A DNA stretch of 64,000 nt from Bacillota bacterium (GTDB lineage Bacteria > Bacillota > SHA-98 > UBA4971): assembly GCA_050261335.1 (NCBI GenBank), contig JBLNDE010000009.1:30010-94009 (forward strand). Reading direction: 5' to 3'. A model generated the notes under the pieces. That model had not been told where the DNA came from. It did not search any database and worked only from the letters and a program-made list of their open reading frames with translations. The position numbers were made by a program, and so were the translations under genes. Of this stretch, positions 6,365 through 52,849 are shown piece by piece (position 1 is the first letter of the stretch; each line of letters opens with the position of its first letter).

Positions 6365-6370
6365 CATGTG

Positions 6371-6985
6371 TGCCAGGGCAGGTGGTGCAGTATTCTAGTC
6401 AGCACCACCATCTTTGAAGGCGGGCCTAAAAATCCGTCAAGGGCACATCGATGAAGTCCCTGGTGCTGGCCGCCGACGCCCAGTCGGGGGCTGGTGCTGG
6501 GGGTTAAGAGGCGAGGGCGATCTGCAATGGCATGCGGGCGTGGACCCTCTCCTCGCGGAGACCCGACCCCGTGGTGAGACGACACCGATCGGCTGCCACG
6601 GCCGGGGGGTAAACCTGCACCTAGGTGCGGGCAGGTGCGAGACACACCGCGCTTGGTGCAGTGTAGCCTGCCTTGAGTGGCGGGAGCGGGATTGCGGGTA
6701 CCAGGGCGCTCGTCTCCTGGCCGGGAGATGCGCTCGTTGCCGCATGAAACTCCAACTGCAAAAGAGGCTAGAAGATGGTGGGTGCTGCCGAGGAAAACTC
6801 CTAGACTGTCCGAATATGTGGGGCACTCCGGGGATTGCAGTGTGCGCTAAGTGGTAATCCGGCCGTCCGAAGGGGCAACCCCGGGAGGCGGTCGTAAACG
6901 GGAAACCGCCCGAGCGGCAACGCGAGGGAGCACCGCAGGGAAAACCAGCCGGACCTCAAGCCACAATATTTACCCGGGATGCCAC
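6371..6985 (+). ncRNA. ole: Candidate OLE (ornate, large, extremophilic) RNA
   Basis: ~600 nt GC-rich stretch with no coding potential. It has its own promoter and many local hairpins. It lies between ispA and a ~22 kDa membrane protein followed by dxs, which is the canonical ole-oapA locus. Confidence 0.5.
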
Positions 6986-7011
6986 CACCTGCCTGGGACG
7001 TTCTTGAGGTG

Positions 7012-7671: not shown

Positions 7672-9643
7672 CTCGCTGAACCTTCCCCAGGATTTGAAAC
7701 GGCTCTCGCTGAACGATCTGGCCCAGCTTGCGTCGGAGATTCGTGGTGAGATCATACAGACGGTGTCCAGGACCGGCGGCCACCTCGCACCGAGCCTCGG
7801 GGCGGTGGACCTCGCCATCGCCCTGCATACGGTGCTGGACAGCCCAAGGGACAAGATCATCTGGGATGTCGGGCACCAGGCTTACGCCCACAAGCTCCTT
7901 ACCGGGCGCAGGTCCGCCTTTAACACCCTCAGGCAGTTCGGAGGCATCAGCGGGTTTCCCCGGCGTGACGAAAGCCCCCATGATGCGTTCAACACGGGGC
8001 ACTCGAGCACGTCCATCTCGGCGGCGCTCGGCATGGCCAGGGCCAGGGACCTCAAGGCGGAGGACTTTGCAGTCGTCGCGGTCATCGGCGACGGCTCGCT
8101 CACCGGGGGCATGGCCTTCGAGGCCCTGAACCATGCAGGACACCTGAAGACGGACCTCATCGTGGTGCTCAACGACAATGAGATGTCCATATCCCCGAAC
8201 GTGGGTGCGCTCGCGTCGTACCTTGCCAGGTTACGGACGGAACCACGCCTCCTGAAACTGCGCCAGGACATAGAACGCGTCCTCGAGGGCATTCCGCGCA
8301 TCGGCAAGGACCTCGCGGAGAGTGTGAGGAGGCTCAAGGGAAGCCTCAAGTACCTGGTCGTGCCGGGGATGCTGTTCGAGAGCCTCGGATTCACGTACCT
8401 CGGGCCGCTCGACGGGCACGACATCCCTTCCATCATGCGGACGGTCGAGGACGCGCGGGCCAAGGGCGGGCCCGTGCTCATCCATGTCATCACGAAGAAA
8501 GGCCGCGGCTACGCTCCCGCGGAAGCCGACCCGCGCAAGTTCCATGGAGTGGGCAGGTTCGACGTGGCTTCGGGGGAGCTATCCAGGTCGCAGGGGCCTC
8601 CCACCTGCACGCAGGTGTTCGGGGAGACCATCGCCAGGCTAGCTGCGAGCGATCCGAGGATCGTCGCAATAACCGCGGCGATGCCCGACGGCACCGGCCT
8701 GGATCTCTTCGGACGGCTCTACCCTGAGCGATTCTTCGACGTTGGCATAGCCGAGCAGCATGCGGTGACCCTCGCGGCCGGGCTCGCAAGCCAGGGCCTT
8801 GTGCCGGTCGCGGCGATCTACTCCACTTTTCTCCAGAGAGCGTACGACCAGATCATCCATGACGTGGCCCTGCAGGGGCTTCACGTGGTATTCGCAGTGG
8901 ACAGGGCAGGGCTCGTGGGAGAGGACGGCCCCACCCACCATGGAGCGTTCGACCTCGCCTACCTGCGCAGCGTGCCTGGCATGACCGTGATGGCGCCGGC
9001 CGACGAGGAGGAACTCGTGGCGATGCTCTCTTCTGCCATTGCCATGGACGGGCCTGTCGCGGTGCGATACCCGAGGTCACAGGGATGGGGCCAGGCCGCC
9101 CTGCGACCGTGCAGTCCGATCGAGCGCGGCAGAGGGGTTCTTGTCCGCGACGGAGGCGACGTGGCCATCGTCGCCATCGGAAGCATGGTCCACCCATCCA
9201 TCGAGGCTGCGGGGCATCTCGAGCGGGAGGGGATACACGCCGCCGTGGTCAATGCGAGGTTCGCAAAACCCCTCGATGATGGCCTCATTTCACAGGTGGC
9301 GGAGGAATGCGGCCGGTTGGTGGTGGTGGAGGAGGGGACCTGCGTCGGCGGTCTCGGGAGCGCGGTGACCGAGGTGCTCGCCCGCCGGGGCGGTGCGTCC
9401 ATTCCGATTCGTCACCTTGCGCTGCAGGACAGGTTTGTGGAACACGGGTCCCGCGAGGTGCTTCTGGCCATGTGCGGGCTCACTGCGCACGACATCGCGA
9501 GGGCCGCGACAGATCTCTGCAGAGGCTCCGGGCGCGCGGCGCGGCGGCGCAGGGATTCCTCTCGAACGGGCCAGGATGACATGGCGGCGGCGGGCGCGGA
9601 GGCAACCAAGTATGGCGCCATGAGTCTTCGCCACTTTTCTTGA
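7655..9643 (+). CDS. dxs: 1-deoxy-D-xylulose-5-phosphate synthase. The C-terminal ~15 aa and the stop codon are encoded by a repeat element.
   Basis: Transketolase-like TPP enzyme (GDGSLTGGMAFEALNHAG...); GTG at 7655 in frame; ORF extends to 7592. Confidence 0.9.
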   Translation: MVRLLDSLNLPQDLKRLSLNDLAQLASEIRGEIIQTVSRTGGHLAPSLGAVDLAIALHTVLDSPRDKIIWDVGHQAYAHKLLTGRRSAFNTLRQFGGISGFPRRDESPHDAFNTGHSSTSISAALGMARARDLKAEDFAVVAVIGDGSLTGGMAFEALNHAGHLKTDLIVVLNDNEMSISPNVGALASYLARLRTEPRLLKLRQDIERVLEGIPRIGKDLAESVRRLKGSLKYLVVPGMLFESLGFTYLGPLDGHDIPSIMRTVEDARAKGGPVLIHVITKKGRGYAPAEADPRKFHGVGRFDVASGELSRSQGPPTCTQVFGETIARLAASDPRIVAITAAMPDGTGLDLFGRLYPERFFDVGIAEQHAVTLAAGLASQGLVPVAAIYSTFLQRAYDQIIHDVALQGLHVVFAVDRAGLVGEDGPTHHGAFDLAYLRSVPGMTVMAPADEEELVAMLSSAIAMDGPVAVRYPRSQGWGQAALRPCSPIERGRGVLVRDGGDVAIVAIGSMVHPSIEAAGHLEREGIHAAVVNARFAKPLDDGLISQVAEECGRLVVVEEGTCVGGLGSAVTEVLARRGGASIPIRHLALQDRFVEHGSREVLLAMCGLTAHDIARAATDLCRGSGRAARRRRDSSRTGQDDMAAAGAEATKYGAMSLRHFS

Positions 9644-9816
9644 GGGTGCTGGGGTCGCCGGTGCTTGCCAGGGCGGGGCGCCTGGGATTTGGCTGGCCCG
9701 TGCGCCGAATTCGAACGAGGCGCGCCGCGAGCGCGCCGTCCCCGGAGTGCAACACCGCCAACACTGGACAAGACCCGCCCGCTGAAAAGAGCGCGAACTT
9801 GTGGCGATCTACTTAG
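9606..9816 (+). repeat. MITE-like dispersed repeat, copy A (full length)
   Basis: CCAAGTATGGCGCCA...GTGGCGATCTACTTAG termini and GTTGCCGGTG...GCAACACCGGCAAC internal inverted repeat; >85% identical to the copies at 40954 and 52638. Confidence 0.8.
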
Positions 9817-10746
9817 GTGGCAGGGGTAGACGATGCTGTTGAGAAAGTAGGCGTCCCCGGGGGGTATGAAGCCCTGGACCGCGAGGAAACGGGCAAGGCC
9901 GCGGGGGCCCGTCCGGAGCGGCGCGCCGAGACGCGCGCTCGCCTGGACGTGCTGCTCGTGGAACGCGGCCTCTTCGAGACCAGAGAAAAGGCGCGCCGCG
10001 CCGTCATGGCCGGAGAGGTCCTGGTGGACGGAGTTCGGGAGGACAAGCCCGGCACCAGGGTCTCCCGTTCAGCCGCCATCGAGCTCAGACCGTCGCGGGA
10101 GCCATACGTCAGCAGAGGCGGCGAGAAGCTGGAGAAGGCCCTCGACGAATTCGGCGTGGACGTGTCAGGCAAGGCCGCCATCGACGTGGGTGCGTCAACA
10201 GGCGGGTTCACCGATTGCCTGCTCCGTCACGGGGCGAGGCGGGTCTACGCGGTGGATGTCGGCTACGGGCAGCTTGCGTGGGAACTGCGCAGCAACCCCA
10301 GGGTCGTGGTGCTCGAGCGCACGAACGTAAGGTACCTCGAGCCGGGGGCCGTGCCCGAACAGGCTGACATCTGCACCATAGACGTCTCGTTCATATCCAT
10401 AATGAAGTTTCTCGAGCACCTCCTGACGTTCCTCTCCCCCGGCGCCGCCGTCGTGGCGCTCGTCAAGCCCCAGTTCGAGGCGGGAAGGGAGAAGGTGGGG
10501 AAGGGCGGGGTCGTGCGGGATCCGGAGGTGCATGCTGAGACGCTCCTGCGGGTGATAGAGTTCATGCAAACGTGCGGCCTGGAGATCCGCGGCCTCACTT
10601 ACTCCCCGATAAAGGGCCCGGCAGGAAACATCGAGTTTCTGGTGTATGCAGTAAAGGGACAGCAGGGCGGGGCGGCAGCTGCTATCGAGGCCGTCGAGCG
10701 AAGGGTATGCGAGGTGGTGGGCGCGGCCCACCGCGCCCTCGACTGA
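9817..10746 (+). CDS. tlyA: TlyA family 16S/23S rRNA (cytidine-2'-O)-methyltransferase
   Basis: S4 domain + FtsJ-like MTase (RLDVLLVERGL...DVGASTGGFTD); N-terminal ~45 aa extension uncertain. Confidence 0.85.
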   Translation: MAGVDDAVEKVGVPGGYEALDREETGKAAGARPERRAETRARLDVLLVERGLFETREKARRAVMAGEVLVDGVREDKPGTRVSRSAAIELRPSREPYVSRGGEKLEKALDEFGVDVSGKAAIDVGASTGGFTDCLLRHGARRVYAVDVGYGQLAWELRSNPRVVVLERTNVRYLEPGAVPEQADICTIDVSFISIMKFLEHLLTFLSPGAAVVALVKPQFEAGREKVGKGGVVRDPEVHAETLLRVIEFMQTCGLEIRGLTYSPIKGPAGNIEFLVYAVKGQQGGAAAAIEAVERRVCEVVGAAHRALD

Positions 10747-11701: not shown

Positions 11702-12191
11702 GAAGGTGAAAGCCTTGAAGGCAAAGCGCCATGCCAGGGTGCTCAAGATCATCAGGGACAGGGTGGTCGAGACCCAGGAGGATCTCGCCCGCGAACTTCG
11801 TAAGGAAGGCTTCAAAGTCACTCAGGCGACCGTATCTCGCGATATAAAGGAGCTTCGAATAACGAAGCTGCCGATGAGCGACGGGCGGTACCGCTACGGC
11901 CTTCCCCGCGAGCACTCGCGCGAAGAGGCCCACAGGCGGCTCGCGAGGCTCTTCGCCGATTCGGTCATCGCCGTCGACTGGAGCGAGAACCTCGTTGTCG
12001 TGAAGACCCTGACCGGCAACGCTCATGCGGTGGCCGCAGCCATCGACGAGGCGGATTTCAAGGAGGTCGTGGGCACCATCGCCGGCGACGACACGATTCT
12101 GGCGGTGGTCCGGCCGAAGTCCGCCGTGCCCGAGGTGCTCGCGAGGTTCAACAAGCTGCGAAAGCCTTCGCCGGAGGAACGGGATGTCTGA
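11682..12191 (+). CDS. argR: Arginine repressor ArgR/AhrC (true start probably GTG 11706 or TTG 11715)
   Basis: Winged-helix N-terminus + C-terminal Arg-binding domain (GDDTILAVVRP). Confidence 0.85.
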   Translation: MRRGTCRKVKALKAKRHARVLKIIRDRVVETQEDLARELRKEGFKVTQATVSRDIKELRITKLPMSDGRYRYGLPREHSREEAHRRLARLFADSVIAVDWSENLVVVKTLTGNAHAVAAAIDEADFKEVVGTIAGDDTILAVVRPKSAVPEVLARFNKLRKPSPEERDV

Positions 12192-12235
12192 GTGTGAATT
12201 CAGAAATCCATGTGGGTCTGGGACAAGCTTCCGGG

Positions 12236-12370
12236 TTGCCGGTGCTTGCTAGGGCGGGGCGCTCTCGATTCGGCAGGCCTGAATGCCTGATCTGACGAGG
12301 CGAGCCGCAAGCGCGCCGTCCCCGGAGCGCAACACCGGAAACCTATGGAAAAGTGGCGGTGATTTCTGAA
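12236..12370 (+). repeat. MITE-like repeat, copy B (5'-truncated, diverged)
   Basis: GGGTTGCCGGTGCTTGCTAGGGCGGGGCGC...GCGCCGTCCCCGGAGCGCAACACCGG shared with the other copies. Confidence 0.6.
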
Positions 12371-12398
12371 CCCGCGCTGGGCCGGGTGGTGAGCTGAC

Positions 12399-17833: not shown

Positions 17834-17974
17834 CGCCAAGTATGACGCCACAGGTTAGCACCGCTTTCCTTGACGGTGTTGGGGCTCACGAGCCGTCCCC
17901 GGAGGGCAACACCGGCAACCCTGGCGAGGACCTGCGCGCTGAAAAGCAGCGCGAATCTGCGGCGGTCTACTCAG
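17834..17974 (+). repeat. MITE-like repeat, copy C (internally deleted)
   Basis: Both termini and the GCAACACCGGCAAC arm are present; the central ~70 nt is missing. Confidence 0.65.
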
Positions 17975-20397: not shown

Positions 20398-20627
20398 AAG
20401 TCGTAGTGGAGATCTCGAAGATCCTCCTGGCCGTGCGGCCTGGGCTTGCCGAGAGAGCGGAGCTCGATCTTCCTGAAGGGTCAACAGTGGCAGATGCTCT
20501 TGCTGCAGCAGGTCTTGCGCAGGGATTATGGGGTATCGTGCTTGTCGGAGACAGGGTGACGAACGTCTCGGCGAAGCTGGCGCCGGGCGACAGGATCACG
20601 GCCCTCCCACCGGTCTCGGGCGGCTGA
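20394..20627 (+). CDS. MoaD/ThiS-family sulfur-carrier protein
   Basis: 77 aa ending in Gly-Gly; overlaps aor stop. Confidence 0.65.
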   Translation: MKVVVEISKILLAVRPGLAERAELDLPEGSTVADALAAAGLAQGLWGIVLVGDRVTNVSAKLAPGDRITALPPVSGG

Positions 20628-20659
20628 GTAAGGATTCGGAGATGCTCCGGACGCTGGCA

Positions 20660-20698
20660 GGGGTTGCCGGTGACTCAAGGAGAGAGCGCAACACCGCG
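20660..20698 (+). repeat. Short fragment of the MITE-like repeat (inverted-repeat core only)
   Basis: GGTTGCCGGTG...GCGCAACACCGC. Confidence 0.35.
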
Positions 20699-21015
20699 AG
20701 CCCTGCAACCGCCGGAGAACGCGGAGGAACTGACGGGCCCTCACTCAGGCTGGTCGGACGGCAACACAAAAGAACACAGGAGACGGTGTGCGAGACAACC
20801 CCGTCCGCGCATAGCATGTAATGTGTCGCCCTCCGGGGAGGGCACGAGACTTGCGCCGGGCGGGGTTGGTGCATTTGGAGAAGCCCAGGATCACGAACGT
20901 GTGGGCCACAGAGCACGCGGACGCTGTGTGCCGTCGGATGCTTTCGCGCCTTGTCATCGAGGCGACGCTTCCGGTCCTCCATCGTATCCGCGCGGCATCC
21001 CCGGGCGAGGTGCGA

Positions 21016-28448: not shown

Positions 28449-30295
28449 GCGAGCGACACGATGAAAGCATCGTGGTGCTCGACGACGAGACCATCGACAA
28501 GATCGCTGCGGGCGAGGTGATCGAGCGTCCGGCGTCGGTCGTGAAGGAGCTTGTGGAGAACTCCCTCGACGCCGGGGCGTCCGGCATAACCGTGGAGCTT
28601 CACGGCGCGCCGGGCGACTTCATCAGGGTGAGCGACAACGGCTCCGGGATGAGCAGGCGCGACGCGAAGATGGCGTTCCGAAGGCACGCTACGAGCAAGA
28701 TCCGCACGGCCGCCGACCTCCACAGCGTCCTCACCATGGGGTTCAGAGGGGAAGCCCTTGCCAGCATTGCGGCGGTTGCCAAGGTTGAGCTCGTGACACG
28801 TCGCGCCGGGGACGTGGCGGGTACCCGCATCGTGCTGGAAGGGGGCGTAGCGGTGCTGGAAGAGGACGCGCCGTCACCCGTCGGCACCGCCGTGACGTGT
28901 CGAGACCTCTTCTTCAACACCCCTGCGAGGCGCAAGTTCCAGAGGCGCCCGGCAACGGAGTTCGACCACGTCCGCGACGTCGTGGCAAGGCTGGCCATGG
29001 CATGGCCGGATGTGAGGTTCCGGCTCGTCCGGGGCGGGCGGGATGTGCTCCCGGCCCAGGGAACACACGGTGGGGACAGGCGCGCGGCCATCGCCTCCAT
29101 CTACGGCGCGGACCTCGCGAAGACCCTGCTTCCCGTCGTGGCGGGCACGCCGCGAACGAGTATCGAGGGGTTCATATCGCCGCCCGACGTGACGAGGGCC
29201 AGCCGCGACACCCAGTGCGTCTTCGTGAACGGAAGGCCCGTGGCGGCACCCGCGGTCGTGCGGGTCATCGAGAACGCGTACGGCAGGAGGCTTCCGCCTG
29301 GAAGGTATCCCGCTGTGTTCCTGTGGATCTCGACTGACCCGGTGTCGATCGATGTGAACGTCCACCCGGCGAAGAGGGAGGTGAGGTTCTCAGGCGGACA
29401 CGACGTGTTCCAGCTTGCCGCTCAGGCGGCGGCCTCCGCCCTGCGCTCCGTTGGAGCGGCACCGGACCTCGCACGGAAGCTTGCTTATCCCGCGGGGGCG
29501 GGCGCCAGGCGCGCAGGGGCTGCCCGCGACGGCATGGGGGCATACGAGACCGGACCAGCCACGGGACCGCCGTTCACCGGTGCAGGCACGCCAGAGAACC
29601 TCGACAGCGTCGGTTCGCGCTCACCGCACGCGCAGGCACTCCGCCTCTCGTGCGCAGGCGGCCCGGCGCGCGAGCAGACCCGAGTTCACGACCAGGTCCA
29701 CGCTGGTTTCGCCCCTTTGGGCGTGTTCATGGGCACTTACATCCTCGCCGCCGACGGCGATGATCTCGTGATAATCGACCAGCATGCTGCGCATGAACGC
29801 ATCCTGTACGAGGCGGTGCTCGCCGGGCTCTCGACCGGCACCGCGCCCAGGGTGCAGTCACTCATTCCGACGACCATCGAGCTCGCGCCGCGGGCCGCGT
29901 CGCGCGTCCCGGCGGTCCTCGACGAGCTGGCGCGGATCGGGTTTGTGCTGGAGCCGTTCGGGCCGTCGGCGCTGCTGCTCAGAGGGGTCCCGGCCGCCCT
30001 CGGCGTCTTGCGCGGCACCGGCGACCTGGCCGGGGTCGTCCAGGGAGCGCTCGAGGCATGTTGTGATGACGCGGACGGCGGTGGACGTGATCCCGGGGAG
30101 GCGCTCGGGCGCGTCGCGGCCGAGGTCGCGTGCAGGGCGGCGGTGAAGGCCCACCGCGTTCTGGAGCCGCCGGAGATCGAGAGGCTCCTCGCGGACCTTG
30201 CGCGAGCAAGCGACCCATACTCCTGTCCGCATGGTCGGCCCACCGTGCTCAGGATCAGCCGCGCGGAACTCGAACGAGCCTTCCGAAGGACCTGA
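28445..30295 (+). CDS. mutL: DNA mismatch repair protein MutL
   Basis: GHKL ATPase N-terminus (IAAGEVIERPASVVKELVENSLDAGAS); ATG overlaps mutS stop. Confidence 0.9.
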   Translation: MSERHDESIVVLDDETIDKIAAGEVIERPASVVKELVENSLDAGASGITVELHGAPGDFIRVSDNGSGMSRRDAKMAFRRHATSKIRTAADLHSVLTMGFRGEALASIAAVAKVELVTRRAGDVAGTRIVLEGGVAVLEEDAPSPVGTAVTCRDLFFNTPARRKFQRRPATEFDHVRDVVARLAMAWPDVRFRLVRGGRDVLPAQGTHGGDRRAAIASIYGADLAKTLLPVVAGTPRTSIEGFISPPDVTRASRDTQCVFVNGRPVAAPAVVRVIENAYGRRLPPGRYPAVFLWISTDPVSIDVNVHPAKREVRFSGGHDVFQLAAQAAASALRSVGAAPDLARKLAYPAGAGARRAGAARDGMGAYETGPATGPPFTGAGTPENLDSVGSRSPHAQALRLSCAGGPAREQTRVHDQVHAGFAPLGVFMGTYILAADGDDLVIIDQHAAHERILYEAVLAGLSTGTAPRVQSLIPTTIELAPRAASRVPAVLDELARIGFVLEPFGPSALLLRGVPAALGVLRGTGDLAGVVQGALEACCDDADGGGRDPGEALGRVAAEVACRAAVKAHRVLEPPEIERLLADLARASDPYSCPHGRPTVLRISRAELERAFRRT

Positions 30296-30407
30296 CGCCA
30301 GCTCGAGGGTACGTTCGGACAGGCAGGCCCGGAACCCGGGATGCGCTGGTAGACTGGTCGAGACCTGCGGACCTGCGCCTACAGTCTCAAGCGAGAAGGA
30401 GTGGAAC

Positions 30408-31394
30408 ATGACGGGATCCTCGAGAGCACGTTCTGATAGACCTCCGATTCCGGACATCCTCGTGGCCATCGTCGGGCCCACGGCGGTCGGCAAGACCGAC
30501 GTGTCCCTCGAAGTTGCCTGCCGGCTGGGCGCCGAGATCGTCTCGTGCGACTCCATGCAGGTATACCGCTACATGGACATCGGCACGGCGAAGCCCAGTC
30601 CTTCTGAGCGCCTGCGAGTGCCCCACCATCTCATCGATGTGGTCGACCCTGACGAGACGTTCAACGTTGCCCGGTTCCAGGAACTTGCGCAGGCGGCTAT
30701 CGACGACATCAGCGCTCGCGGGCGTGTTCCCCTTCTCGTCGGAGGAACCGGCCTCTACGTGCGGGCCATCATCGACGGCTTCCTGTTCCCCTGGGAGGGC
30801 GCGTCGCCGGAGATCCGCCGGAAGCTAGAGGAGGAGGCCGACGCACATGGCGCCCCCGCGCTCCACGCGAGGCTCGAGGAGGCGGACCCGGCGGCGGCGC
30901 GGAGGATTCATCCCAACGACGCCCGTCGCATCATCCGCGCGCTCGAGGTGCATGAGACGACCGGCCGGCCAATCTCCGAGATGTGGCGCAGGGGCGGGGG
31001 CCGGAAGATGCGTGTGGACAGGCTGGTCATAATCGGGCTGGTGCGTGACAGGGCAGCCATTTATGAACGCATAGACCGGCGATGCGACGCCATGATCGAA
31101 CAGGGCCTCGTCGATGAGACGCGCGGCCTTCTCGAACGCGGATACGAGAGAGCGCTCACGGCAGGGCAGGCCCTGGGGTACAAGGAGATCGTGGAACACC
31201 TCCGGGGCAGGTGTGCGCTTGCAGACGCCGTCGAGGCCATCAAACGGAACACCAGGCGCTACGCCAAGCGGCAGCTCACCTGGTTCCGCGCCGACCCGCG
31301 TATCGAGTGGATCGACCTGGGGACGCCTTCGGCCGTGAGCGAGGCCGCTACCTGTGTGCTGGCGCTCATCAGAGGAAAACTCGCCGCGATGTAG
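30408..31394 (+). CDS. miaA: tRNA dimethylallyltransferase MiaA
   Basis: P-loop IVGPTAVGKT; GAAGGAG RBS. Confidence 0.9.
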   Translation: MTGSSRARSDRPPIPDILVAIVGPTAVGKTDVSLEVACRLGAEIVSCDSMQVYRYMDIGTAKPSPSERLRVPHHLIDVVDPDETFNVARFQELAQAAIDDISARGRVPLLVGGTGLYVRAIIDGFLFPWEGASPEIRRKLEEEADAHGAPALHARLEEADPAAARRIHPNDARRIIRALEVHETTGRPISEMWRRGGGRKMRVDRLVIIGLVRDRAAIYERIDRRCDAMIEQGLVDETRGLLERGYERALTAGQALGYKEIVEHLRGRCALADAVEAIKRNTRRYAKRQLTWFRADPRIEWIDLGTPSAVSEAATCVLALIRGKLAAM

Positions 31395-31457
31395 AACGTT
31401 ACATCGTGCGCGATCGCCGGGGGAATGCATGTCGCAATGGGGAGGACGAACGACGAG

Positions 31458-31709
31458 ATGAGCAAGCCTTCACCGAACCTTCAGGACATGTTCCTCAATG
31501 CCGTCAGGCGACAGGAGATCCCGGTCACCATATACCTCGTCAACGGCTACCAGATGAAGGGCCTCGTGAAAGGCTTCGACAGCTTCACCGTCATCCTCTC
31601 CGATGGCGCGCGGCAAGATCTCATTTACAAGCACGCCATCTCCACCATCACCCCCGCCCGCGCGATCCCACTCCTTTCCCACGCCGACCATGAAGATAGT
31701 CCCGTCTAG
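31458..31709 (+). CDS. hfq: RNA chaperone Hfq
   Basis: Sm motif ([23 protein letters not shown]). Confidence 0.9.
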
Positions 31710-31831
31710 TCCCGCTTGATGGTCCCCGCGCCGCGCTCCTCGGTCTGGCAGCGTGTAGCGTGCTCCGTCGGAATGACAGGTGTTCAACCGGCCGAGACGA
31801 CGATGGGTCCACGCGTTGCCGCGCCGGTGCC

Positions 31832-39877: not shown

Positions 39878-40957
39878 ATGGATGCAACCGCGAAGATGCT
39901 GAAAGATCTCTCGGAAGCACCGGGGGTATCAGGCTATGAGAAGGAAGTCCGCAGGGTTATCCGGCGGTACGTGGAGCCGTATGCCGTGATCGAGCAGGAC
40001 CGGCTCGGGAGCCTCGTGGCGCGCCGCACAGGCGCGAGCGACCGGCCGAGGATAATGCTGGCTGCGCACATGGACGAGATCGGGTTCATGGTGAAGTCGG
40101 TGACCTCCGAGGGATACTTGAGATTCCTGCCACTCGGCGGCTGGTTCGACCAGGTGTTGCTGGCTCAAAGAGTCATCGTCAAGACCGCGTCCGGCGACGT
40201 GCCGGGGATCATTGGCTCGAAGCCGCCCCATCTCCTTACCGAGGAAGAGCGAAAGAAGGTCGTGGAGAAGAAGGATATGTTCATCGACATCGGGGCCACC
40301 AGCTTTGAACAGGCTACGAGCGAGTTCGGCATCCGGCCGGGAGACCCCGTGGTCCCGGCAAGCAGCTTCGAGGTCCTCAAGAACGATAAGGTGTACATGG
40401 GCAAGGCATGGGACGACAGGGTCGGGTGTGCCCTGTTCATCGACGTTCTCAGGAACCTTGCAGGCGGCAGCGGGAGCCATCCCAACACGGTGTACGGGGT
40501 AGCCACGGTTCAGGAGGAAGTGGGGCTTCGCGGCGCGGAGACCAGCGCAGACGTGGTCGATCCCGATGTGGCGTTCGCGCTCGAGGTCGGCATCGCCAAC
40601 GACGTGCCCGGCAGCGACAAGGACAAGGTGCAGGAGCGCATGGGCGAGGGCCCGGTCATCCTCATATACGACCGGTCTCTCATTCCCAACATCAAACTTC
40701 GCGACCTTGTCATCGATACGGCGAAGGCTCACGGCATACCGTACCAGACCGATTTCATGGAGGGCGGCGCGGCCGACACCGGGAGGATCCACCTCCACGG
40801 AAGCGGCGTACCGTCCATCGTGATCGGGGTGCCGTCGCGTTACATCCACAGTCATGCAGCGCTCATACACCGCGACGACTACGATCATGCGGTTGCGCTC
40901 ATAACGGAGGTTGTGAAGCGACTCGACGCGGTAACCGTAGCCGACCTCGTCAGCTAA
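39878..40957 (+). CDS. M42 family glutamyl aminopeptidase (FrvX/YsdC-like)
   Basis: M42 metal-binding motifs (HMDEIG; QEEVGLRGA). Confidence 0.85.
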   Translation: MDATAKMLKDLSEAPGVSGYEKEVRRVIRRYVEPYAVIEQDRLGSLVARRTGASDRPRIMLAAHMDEIGFMVKSVTSEGYLRFLPLGGWFDQVLLAQRVIVKTASGDVPGIIGSKPPHLLTEEERKKVVEKKDMFIDIGATSFEQATSEFGIRPGDPVVPASSFEVLKNDKVYMGKAWDDRVGCALFIDVLRNLAGGSGSHPNTVYGVATVQEEVGLRGAETSADVVDPDVAFALEVGIANDVPGSDKDKVQERMGEGPVILIYDRSLIPNIKLRDLVIDTAKAHGIPYQTDFMEGGAADTGRIHLHGSGVPSIVIGVPSRYIHSHAALIHRDDYDHAVALITEVVKRLDAVTVADLVS

Positions 40958-41166
40958 GTGGATCGCCACAAGTTCGCGCTCCTTTTCGGCGGGTGAGTCC
41001 TGTTCAGGGTTGCCGGTGTTGCCCTCCGGGGACGGCGGGCTTGCGGCGCGCCTCGTTCGAATGTGGCGCGCGGGCTAGCCAAATTCCAGGCGCCCCGCCC
41101 TAGCAAGCACCGGCAACCCCAACACCGTCAGAGAAGATGGCGCAAACTCATGGCGCCATACCTGGA
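40954..41166 (-). repeat. MITE-like repeat, copy D (full length, inverted orientation)
   Basis: Reverse complement aligns end-to-end with copies A and E; overlaps the peptidase stop codon. Confidence 0.8.
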
Positions 41167-41278
41167 CGGCGGTCCGGACACCACCGCCATTCGCTTTCAC
41201 GGGGGTGACCGACGTTGCACTCAAGAGACGGCGCCCCGGACGAGGCGCCTCGACAGATCCCGGAAGGAGGGAACCGAC

Positions 41279-47226: not shown

Positions 47227-47304
47227 CGGGGCGTGGCGCAGTTTGGCTAGCGCGCCTGAATGGGGTTCAGGAGGTCGCGAGTTCAAGTCTCGCCGCTCCG
47301 ACCA
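47227..47304 (+). tRNA. tRNA-Pro (anticodon GGG), CCA encoded
   Basis: Manual cloverleaf: acceptor CGGGGCG/CGCUCCG, anticodon stem CCUGA/UCAGG with loop AUGGGGU, T-arm GCGAG-UUCAAGU-CUCGC. Confidence 0.8.
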
Positions 47305-49279: not shown

Positions 49280-49364
49280 GCGAGAGTGGCGGAACGGCAG
49301 ACGCGCCAGACTTAGGATCTGGTGGGTAACCCCCGTGAGGGTTCAAATCCCTCCTCTCGCACCA
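49280..49364 (+). tRNA. tRNA-Leu (anticodon UAG), CCA encoded, long variable arm
   Basis: Manual fold; close match to the bacterial tRNA-Leu scaffold (UGGCGGAA..GGCAGACGCGC D-arm, GAGGGUUCAAAUCCCUC T-arm); preceded by a TTGATC-16-TGGTACAAT promoter at 49176-49203. Confidence 0.8.
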
Positions 49365-51359: not shown

Positions 51360-52511
51360 GTGAGAGGTTGTCGGTCGAGTTGGTGTCCTGTTGTTCTGGT
51401 GTTGCTTCTAGGGCTGGGGCTGGGGACGGGCGCATTTGCCGCCGTAGAGCCGGTGCGCATAGGTCTTCAGGCCCCTATCACCGGGCAGTGGGCGTACGAA
51501 GGTGAGATGGCGCGAAACTGCGTCCAGATCGTGGCCGACCAGATCAACGCGAAAGGCGGCGTTCTCGGGCGGCCAATCGAGATCGTGCTCGGGGACGACC
51601 AGTGCAGCCCCAAGCAAAGCGCAGTGGTCGCACAGCGCATGTTGAGCGAGAAAGTGGTCGCTGTGATAGGCACCTACGGTTCGTCGGTGACCGAGCCGGC
51701 GGCGACCATCTACGAAAGGGCGAGGCTTCTCAATATCGCATATGGGTCCACTGCGGAGCAACTCACATCCCACGGATGGAAGTTCTTCTTCCGCACGTGC
51801 TTCCGGGATGACCGCCAGGGAGCGTTCTTTGCCGAATTCGTCAATGAGACCCTGAAACTGAAGCGCGTCGCCATCCTGCACGACAACACCACGTTCGGAA
51901 AGGGCCTTGCGGAGGCCGCCAGGCGCTCGCTGCAACAGGTAAAGAAGGCCGAGGTCGTGTTCTACGACGCAGTCACTCCAGGCGAGCGCGACTTCACGCC
52001 GGTAATCACCCGGATGCTGACCACGAAGCCGGAGGTGGTGTACTACACTGCGTACTACCCCGAGGCTGGCCTCATAATCCGGCAGATGAGGGATCTCGGT
52101 AGCAAGGCCTTCTTCGTCGGGGGCAACGCCGCCATCAACGACGAGTTCATCAGCATTGCAGGCCTGGAGATCGCGAAAGGATCCCTGATGACTCAGGAGC
52201 CTTTGCCGACCGACCTCCGATACCCCGAGTCCAAGCCTTTCCTCGATGAGTACATTCGCCGGCATAAGGAGGCGCCGAGCAGCCCCTGGCCGGTTTACGC
52301 TGCTGACGCGCTCAAAGTCATCGCCGCCGCCATCGATGCCACCGGGTCTACCGATTCAAAGGTGCTGGCGGACTACCTCCGTAACAAGATGCAGGACCTT
52401 CCAGGCATCACCGGGCCGATCTCGTTCGACGATGCAGGTGACCGCGAGGGAGCCATATATCTTGCGTACGAGGTGACCGCCGACGGGAAATTCAAGCCAT
52501 ACCAGCCGTAA
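51360..52511 (+). CDS. livK: Branched-chain amino acid ABC transporter substrate-binding protein
   Basis: Signal peptide + LivK/LivJ periplasmic-binding fold; GTG start after AGGAGG RBS. Confidence 0.85.
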   Translation: MRGCRSSWCPVVLVLLLGLGLGTGAFAAVEPVRIGLQAPITGQWAYEGEMARNCVQIVADQINAKGGVLGRPIEIVLGDDQCSPKQSAVVAQRMLSEKVVAVIGTYGSSVTEPAATIYERARLLNIAYGSTAEQLTSHGWKFFFRTCFRDDRQGAFFAEFVNETLKLKRVAILHDNTTFGKGLAEAARRSLQQVKKAEVVFYDAVTPGERDFTPVITRMLTTKPEVVYYTAYYPEAGLIIRQMRDLGSKAFFVGGNAAINDEFISIAGLEIAKGSLMTQEPLPTDLRYPESKPFLDEYIRRHKEAPSSPWPVYAADALKVIAAAIDATGSTDSKVLADYLRNKMQDLPGITGPISFDDAGDREGAIYLAYEVTADGKFKPYQP

Positions 52512-52637
52512 TGCCGTAGCGCCCGCCACGCCCGTCCGCCCGAAAGCCGGACCCGCTGGTGCGGCAGGGGCGCTCGCGGCGGGGAGCGGGGAGTGGGGCG
52601 TGGAGAGCAGAGGGCGGAGAGCGGGCCACCCCCAGCT

Positions 52638-52849
52638 CCAAGTATGGCGCCACGGGTTTGCGACACTTTTTCCGGCGGTGTTAGGGTTGCCGGTGCTTGT
52701 TAGGGCGGGGTGCCTGGAATTTGGCTGGCCTGTACGCCAAATTCGAACGAGGCTCACCGCACGTGCGCCGTCCCCGGAGCGCGACACCGGCAACCACGGA
52801 TGCGCCTTGCGCACTGGAAAGCAGCACAAACTCGTGGCGATCTACTCAG
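52638..52849 (+). repeat. MITE-like repeat, copy E (full length)
   Basis: End-to-end alignment with copies A and D. Confidence 0.8.

Follow-up and report, generated by a model that had tools for sequence, protein, structure and literature searches.

MITEs of 100-200 bp that end in TA and form long stem-loops are familiar from bacteria (PMC2229807). One of these is RUP of Streptococcus pneumoniae, which, like the elements described here, is a small non-coding repeat of a Firmicutes host that has terminal inverted repeats (TIRs), inserts at TA, occupies intergenic positions and reaches ~100 copies; IS630-Spn1 is the proposed source of the transposase that moves RUP in trans (PMC2229807). However, RUP, whose parent IS is known, is 107 bp long and folds into a simple stem-loop. 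The present elements measure ~210 bp, carry a branched core that recurs across families with different TIRs and show a strong preference for CTAG, and no parent IS was found in the sequence examined. The Correia elements (NEMIS) of Neisseria also have TA at both termini, long inverted repeats and the potential to form stable stem-loops; they too lie at gene boundaries, occur as full and internally deleted variants and, in the account of PMC2229807, have no known cognate transposase. They differ from the elements here in host phylum and sequence. An IHF site, promoter-like ends and transcripts that are processed by RNase III also belong to the Correia elements, features not observed for the elements here.

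Two further comparisons can be made. BOX and ERIC/IRU share with the elements here a mosaic or modular build, stem-loop potential and variants in which internal modules have been inserted or deleted (PMC2229807; PMC3049150). BOX is without a defined TA target duplication. In the elements here, the modules are a single conserved core and the exchangeable TIR-bearing arms around it. Elements of the IS630 family, like ISY100, insert at TA and duplicate it (PMC2170065), and a preference of IS630 for TA within 5'-CTAG-3' is reported in the title of Tenzen and Ohtsubo 1991, cited by PMC2170065. IS630 and ISY100 are 1.0-1.4 kb long and encode a transposase, and their likeness to the elements here is drawn from the target signature.

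We have analysed a stretch of 64,000 nucleotides from an uncultured Bacillota bacterium (GCA_050261335.1, contig JBLNDE010000009.1, positions 30,010 to 94,009), referred to below as the window, together with related sequences. The repeats in it form a genuine family of mobile, non-coding DNA elements of small size (MITEs). The kind of element is ordinary; the family itself, from an uncultured Bacillota lineage of high GC content, is newly described. Together the copies make up a MITE superfamily, of the TA/CTAG (IS630/Tc1-mariner-like) kind, that had not been described before. Its members measure 190-215 bp and have no coding capacity, the ORFs across them being only recurrent junk frames or read-through from neighbouring genes. 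Six related elements lie in the window (three full copies of family A, one deleted A copy, one full copy of family B and one core-less copy of family C). These, with the parts of the focal copy, are:

9606-9816, + strand: full family-A copy within the 3' end of dxs; the next ORF follows directly, at 9817
12188-12381, + strand: full family-B copy between argR and recN, reading C, TG, element 12191-12378, GG, G, with its core at 12233-12342
17836-17974, + strand: internally deleted family-A copy, the 72-nt deletion bounded by GGCTC repeats
20624-20748, + strand: copy with its core interior deleted, reading C, TG, element 20627-20745, CA, G, and assigned to family C by comparison with family-C arms from other loci
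40954-41166, - strand: full family-A copy at an M42 peptidase gene, whose stop codon TAA (40955-40957) is the target TA plus the first base of the element
52638-52849, + strand: the focal family-A element with its flanking target bases, reading C, CA (degenerate TA), element 52641-52846, CA (degenerate TA), G
52641-52683, + strand: 5' arm of the focal copy, containing the terminal inverted repeat AGTATGGCGCCA and, when folded, base-paired to the 3' arm
52684-52794, + strand: core module of the focal copy, common to families A, B and C; covariance-model match of 110 bits
52686-52695/52785-52794 (P1), 52717-52725/52736-52744 (P3) and 52751-52757/52763-52769 (P4): core stems of the focal copy, forming a three-way junction
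52795-52846, + strand: 3' arm of the focal copy, with the terminal inverted repeat TGGCGATCTACT at its end

The focal copy lies between a Peripla_BP_6-type (livK-like) gene, which ends at 52511, and a livH-like gene, which starts at ~52923. The Peripla_BP_6 Pfam match was obtained on the orthologue of the livK-like gene in MAG Bacillota bacterium Yes71-24, a genome that is collinear with the window at ~96% identity, and an exact-protein look-up gave no identical record for the livH-like protein. Directly upstream of the copy, at 52560-52637, is a G-rich tract (GGGGAGCGGGGAGTGGGGCGTGGAGAGCAGAGGGCGGAGAGCGGG); GGGG-rich flanks of this sort also adjoin copies in another locus (L040).

An earlier note on this DNA, made from the letters alone, had reported a repeat family here, and its positions are supported, far above chance, by a repeat search and a shuffled pattern control. 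The search paired 9606-9789 with 52638-52821 (78% identity), 9581-9789 with 40982-41190 in complementary orientation (82%) and 40954-41166 with 52637-52849 (80%), and gave shorter matches at ~12233-12343 and 17836-17974. A 22-nt core pattern has five exact occurrences in the window, against none in 100 shuffles. The full copies had been called near-identical; their actual identity is ~80%. Two of the smaller copies also had to be redrawn. The segment at 12236-12370, taken to be 5'-truncated, is really part of a complete member of the sister family B (12188-12381), which shares the core and differs in its arms (TIR AGTGTGAATTCAGAAATCC), and the supposed 40-bp core fragment at 20660-20698 is really the middle of the core-less family-C element at 20624-20748. 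More generally, "inner-only" copies, including that at window 12233-12342, were considered as truncated elements and rejected as such, different outer arms being found around the same ~110-nt core. The remaining small copy, at 17836-17974, belongs to family A and has lost 72 nt from its interior; its Yes71-24 orthologue is full length (L382:16163-16373). The rest of the description stands: the terminal inverted repeats, the long internal inverted repeat and the positions at gene ends are all confirmed. The recurring junk peptide WRKLMAPYL is encoded by TGG CGC AAA CTT ATG GCG CCA TAC TTA, a stretch that lies on the complementary strand of the 5' arm in the family-A consensus.

All families share the same terminal plan, C-TA-AGT...ACT-TA-G, with TIRs that start AGT and finish ACT. 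Full family-A copies read C-TA-AGTATGGCGCCAT ... TGGCGATCTACT-TA-G, the TIR being AGTATGGCGCCA.. against ..TGGCGATCTACT. In family B the TIR is AGTGTGAGTTCAGAAATC, which matches its partner at 21/24 positions, and the arms run from AGTGTGAGTTCAGAAATCC.. to ..GATTTCTGAACCCACACT; in family C it is AGTGAGGGT, with arms from AGTGAGGGTGCAGAAATGC.. to ..ACGCACCCTCACT. The outermost element sequences next to the TA are AGTATGGCGCC.., AGTGTGAGTTCAG.. and AGTGAGGGTGCAG... A further arm variant is present in the MAG UBA6811. Comparison of the families gives an identity of 72-88% for the core and 43-60% for the arms. Chimeric copies combine an A 5' arm with a B 3' arm, and in some copies the orientation of the core is inverted relative to the arms.

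The target site can be read from the sequences around the copies. Among 49 full A copies, position -1 is C in 44 and position +1 is G in 45, with -2 and +2 random. TA is retained at 31/49 on each side; most of the others have CA or TG, each a single transition away from TA. Two abutting A copies in L052 have one TA between them (..CCACT-TA-AGTATGG..), and at L053:6701-6911 an A copy sits in a B core, giving GCT-CTA[..]TAG-ATTTGG against the intact GCT-CTCG-ATTTGG, a net gain of exactly 2 nt. One particular CTAG of the core has been hit by five independent nested insertions (L016, L022, L046, L056 and L302), which read GCTTGC-TA-AGT... At the M42 peptidase stop, relatives have AGC-TAG-C where the window has AGC-TAA-GTGGATCGCC..; the left junction is clean and the right flank is too diverged for alignment. 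The flanking C here is host sequence, since it is part of an AGC codon conserved in the empty sites. The empty sites in relatives with ~90% amino acid identity, both at argR/recN and at the right flank of the peptidase copy, are too diverged to show both junctions. The only direct repeat at the element ends is the 2-bp TA; the 3-bp (TAA vs TTA) and 4-bp (CTAA vs TTAG) candidates are inverted. A target-site duplication, which the earlier note had named as something to look for, is therefore indicated by the nested copies, the abutting copies and the one clean left junction at an empty orthologous site: the C and G appear to belong to the target, and the TA within CTAG appears to be duplicated.

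CTAG is a rare word in this DNA. The window holds 24 occurrences against 208 expected from base composition, a depletion of ~9-fold, and several of the 24 are in an OLE RNA, a tRNA or the elements themselves. CTAG includes TAG whichever strand is read, and elsewhere this high-GC genome strongly avoids it, so that many insertions fall on stop codons. In 12/49 full A copies a long, high-GC3 ORF in the flank has the terminal TA(A/G) as its stop codon, and a stop codon lies at the insertion junction in three of the six window copies, namely those at the M42 peptidase, the arginine repressor and the ThiS-like gene. The arginine-repressor gene is supported by Arg_repressor Pfam matches, and its stop, TGA at 12189-12191, is the junction of the B copy. 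In Yes71-24 this stop is TAG (L382:10475-10477), and TGA and TAG are each one transition away from the TAA of C-TA-AGT. The stop at this site has been kept while the sequence drifts toward G. At the family-C copy, the TGA at 20625-20627 is the stop of a 77-aa ThiS/MoaD-like ORF ending GG, annotated ThiS in L382. The dxs ORF, which ends at 9643, reads its last 12 codons from the element at 9606-9816. Across the copies for which gene context was called, by a GC3-based heuristic, 34 were tandem, 12 convergent and five divergent. The pattern of positions at gene ends follows from CTAG insertions that land on stop codons and keep a stop.

Very probably, the elements are MITEs of 190-215 bp that are moved in trans by a transposase of the IS630/Tc1-mariner type and insert at the TA of CTAG. 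A cut-and-paste DDE transposase of this type, supplied in trans, would mobilise them; insertion would take place at the TA of the rare tetranucleotide CTAG, with that TA duplicated; and the junction C-TA-AGT rebuilds a TAA stop, which leaves the gene intact. We infer the transposase family solely from the TA and CTAG signature. A cognate transposase, the other thing that the earlier note had proposed to seek, was not found: no autonomous element or transposase with matching ends is present in the ~1.5 Mb made up of the window, 68 genome loci, 27 metagenome loci and extra loci. TIR pairs at 500-3500 bp spacing each consisted of two separate MITEs, which excludes intact IS copies in the sequence examined. 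When ORFs of at least 150 aa from the loci examined were clustered all against all, no multi-copy transposase emerged, and no TIR-like end in the sequence examined lies further than 330 nt from a core. In L062 a 3' arm that stands alone was considered as an IS end and rejected; a short non-transposase sequence precedes it, and it could not be extended. A literature text search with the element's sequence strings returned nothing relevant.

The lack of a cognate transposase in the sequence examined, together with an assignment drawn only from the target-site signature, leaves some room for a MITE superfamily mobilised by a different transposase family, either another CTAG-using DDE group or an undescribed enzyme. 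We regard this as decidedly unlikely. A direct repeat of 2 bp, with the longer candidates inverted, and the net gain of exactly 2 nt at the nested copy in L053 both go against it, and TA duplication in CTAG is the published behaviour of IS630 (PMC2170065).

One point against the IS630-type model is the core, which is better conserved than the arms and has stems that covary; simple neutral decay does not predict that. Folding of the whole element gives a long rod (z = -2.9 for the + strand, -4.3 for the - strand). Within it, the ~110-nt core forms a three-way junction made of P1 and P1b, a GGGG/CCCC stem, and the hairpins P3 and P4. DNA minimum-energy folds of A, B and C and of one metagenome variant give the same junction, with z of -4.5 to -8.7 in 4/5 representatives; the most diverged core tested (L002) gives a different fold (z = -1.9). 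When 122 cores were aligned with a covariance model, in an alignment that is fitted to the model and whose copies share descent, 93.7% of cells were paired in the proposed structure against 26-47% in slid controls, and 133 cells carried compensatory changes against 9-43. The core pair counts exceed the shuffled as well as the slid controls. Compensatory changes occur at 14 pairs, and 8/9 of the P3 pairs covary. From these pair counts and compensatory changes we take the core structure to be conserved, within the terms of a model-fitted alignment of copies that share descent. Covariation, for which the earlier note had proposed a test, is thus seen in the 122 aligned cores; a host RNA function is unsupported by the tests described next.

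In a structural RNA reading, the core would be a functional structured RNA (an mRNA stabiliser, a terminator or an insulator) kept by the host at gene ends, with mobility secondary. The recurrence of the same three-way junction in diverged families, with z of -4.5 to -8.7 in 4/5 representatives, would suit such a role, as would the pairing of 93.7% of cells against 26-47% when slid, the 14 compensatory pairs, the covariation of 8/9 P3 pairs and the better conservation of the core than of the arms. However, Rfam gave no match, either at the gathering threshold over the whole window or at an E-value of 10 for the focal copy. The focal copy contains no promoter, and only two weak, overlapping terminator-like matches lie inside its 5' part; these have weak internal stems and poor tails, and the element is not followed by a T-run. 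With 22 copies co-oriented and 12 anti-oriented to flanking genes, there is no significant bias in orientation (p = 0.12), and the inversion of the core relative to the arms in some copies likewise counts against an RNA. Outside P4, G-U (82) and A-C (68) are about equal, which favours neither strand. The identity of orthologous copies is 93.4% and 89.3%, that of flanking genes 95-97.5%, and so the copies evolve at least as fast as their flanks; the former value is that of the copy at 9606-9816, which is also present in Yes71-24. Furthermore, the core has been deleted in one genome at two orthologous sites, with 122 nt lost at argR/recN in Yes71-24, where the orthologue of the B copy at 12188-12381 is without this core region, and 72 nt lost at 17836 in the window. 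A host RNA is accordingly very improbable. The earlier note had left open a mobile element or a structured RNA acting as terminator or insulator; dispersed copies, TIRs, TA duplication and presence/absence differences favour the former, and the tests of the latter were negative.

The 122-nt junction shows a short (TGGGA/TGGA-like) microhomology, as read by eye, and the 72-nt deletion is bounded by GGCTC direct repeats; both fit slippage across a hairpin. The symmetric conservation of the hairpin would fit a DNA-level property, or templated correction in quasi-palindromes, better than an RNA. Most likely, the conserved branched hairpin core is a property of the element itself (foldback DNA, homogenised by recombination between families). 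Individual copies decay in a neutral-like manner.

It is also conceivable, but rather unlikely, that the core is a selected functional module. It may serve as a single-stranded DNA or RNA structure for mobilisation or copying, or as a platform for a host factor, and may be kept by or exchanged among MITE families that have different TIRs and presumably different transposases. If true, this would be a modular system of "structured cargo plus swappable ends", and we know of no description of such a system for bacterial MITEs.

The least tenable alternative, that these are REP/REPIN-like palindromes spread by a RAYT (IS200/IS605-type Y1) transposase which recognises the hairpin, is extremely improbable despite the long hairpin, the high copy number and the intergenic location, as the ends are marked by duplication of a TA within CTAG, an outcome that Y1 transposases are not known to produce, ~210 bp exceeds the typical REPIN size, and the loci examined held no repeated ORFs and no TIR-flanked segments in a search that is blind to a single-copy RAYT gene.

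The earlier note had named two findings that would count against its family: copies belonging to a single duplicated segment, and a lack of further copies in the genome. Neither holds. The flanks of the copies are unrelated, so the copies are not parts of one larger duplicated segment, and further copies are plentiful outside the window. With one genome taken per species, the 22-nt core pattern was found at at least 68 loci, mostly in Yes71-24; among the matches listed, the remaining loci belong to UBA6811, MAG-64 and AS02xzSISU_21 (uncultured Bacillota MAGs), with a few chance matches. A profile of the three window copies (nhmmer) gave at least 120 non-overlapping matches, at least 50 of them full length and at least 98 of them in 51 loci of Yes71-24. 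A metagenome scan with both strands of the outer core stem added 27 genuine loci, from bioreactor and biogas metagenomes. Several contigs terminate inside the repeat. Two scans of viral contigs, one with the TIR pattern and one with the core pattern, gave chance matches only, and nhmmer found no real copy in 171 loci. The loci L014, L019, L054, L055 and L064 were rejected as elements: the pattern occurs there by chance in the gene of a conserved ~410-aa protein (Streptomyces, gut Clostridia), and nhmmer gave no match.

A partial element lies at the end of contig JBLNCC010000048.1 (L025), which is binned as a Betaproteobacteria MAG, and near-identical contigs from the same Bacillota organism (P0121/P0254, P0256 and P0259) carry the names of Bacteroidota, Betaproteobacteria and Clostridia MAGs. 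These names are likely to reflect mis-binning.

In terms of age, the 44 family-A copies in Yes71-24 have a median pairwise identity of 83%, and identities to the nearest neighbour range from 73% to 99%. Every window copy examined is also present in Yes71-24 (96% identical), and comparison of the window with this genome revealed no insertion polymorphism, only internal deletions. As all the examined window copies are common to Yes71-24, the family has not been very recently active in these strains. Over greater distances its presence differs between genera. The UBA6811 element (L002) is missing at the orthologous Yes71-24 site (L011), the M42 peptidase site is empty in 12/12 related loci examined (L069-L080), and the argR/recN spacer measures 55 nt in more distant relatives against 207 nt in the window. 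In two genera, one orthologous tRNA gene has an element immediately before its promoter, an A element in one case (L011:2285-2496) and a B-like element in the other (L002:1-80), which suggests independent insertions into the same intergenic region.

Some further features of the window were observed. A full-length OLE (ornate large extremophilic) RNA is encoded at 6366-7004 on the + strand (452.9 bits), flanked by a polyprenyl-synthase-like gene and a 230-aa ORF, followed by dxs; its presence places the organism among the OLE-bearing anaerobic or extremophilic Bacillota. Two tRNA genes lie on the + strand at 47227-47301 and 49280-49361 (Rfam, 58.1 and 59.9 bits). The 96% collinearity with Yes71-24 starts at window 31812, and ~29900-31811 is not alignable to L081:1-1926. 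A gene for a GntP permease lies in the latter segment, the aligned block opens with a PemK toxin / HTH_17 pair just inside it, and the failure of L081:1-1926 to align to the window points to a local indel or rearrangement.

For annotators of this uncultured, OLE-RNA-bearing, high-GC Bacillota lineage of biogas reactors, the family accounts for ~100 repeats per genome that can be masked. The repeats are responsible for contig breaks in MAGs and for spurious ORFs such as ..WRKLMAPYL, and the insertions have altered the 3' ends of genes, including the dxs C-terminus and the stops of the arginine repressor, the ThiS-like protein and the M42 peptidase. The family also offers a clear example of how a preference for TA in CTAG, combined with a ~9-fold depletion of CTAG, directs a transposon to stop codons, at which an insertion does almost no harm. 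Of wider interest is the covarying branched core, which is better conserved across families than the ends to which a transposase would putatively bind.
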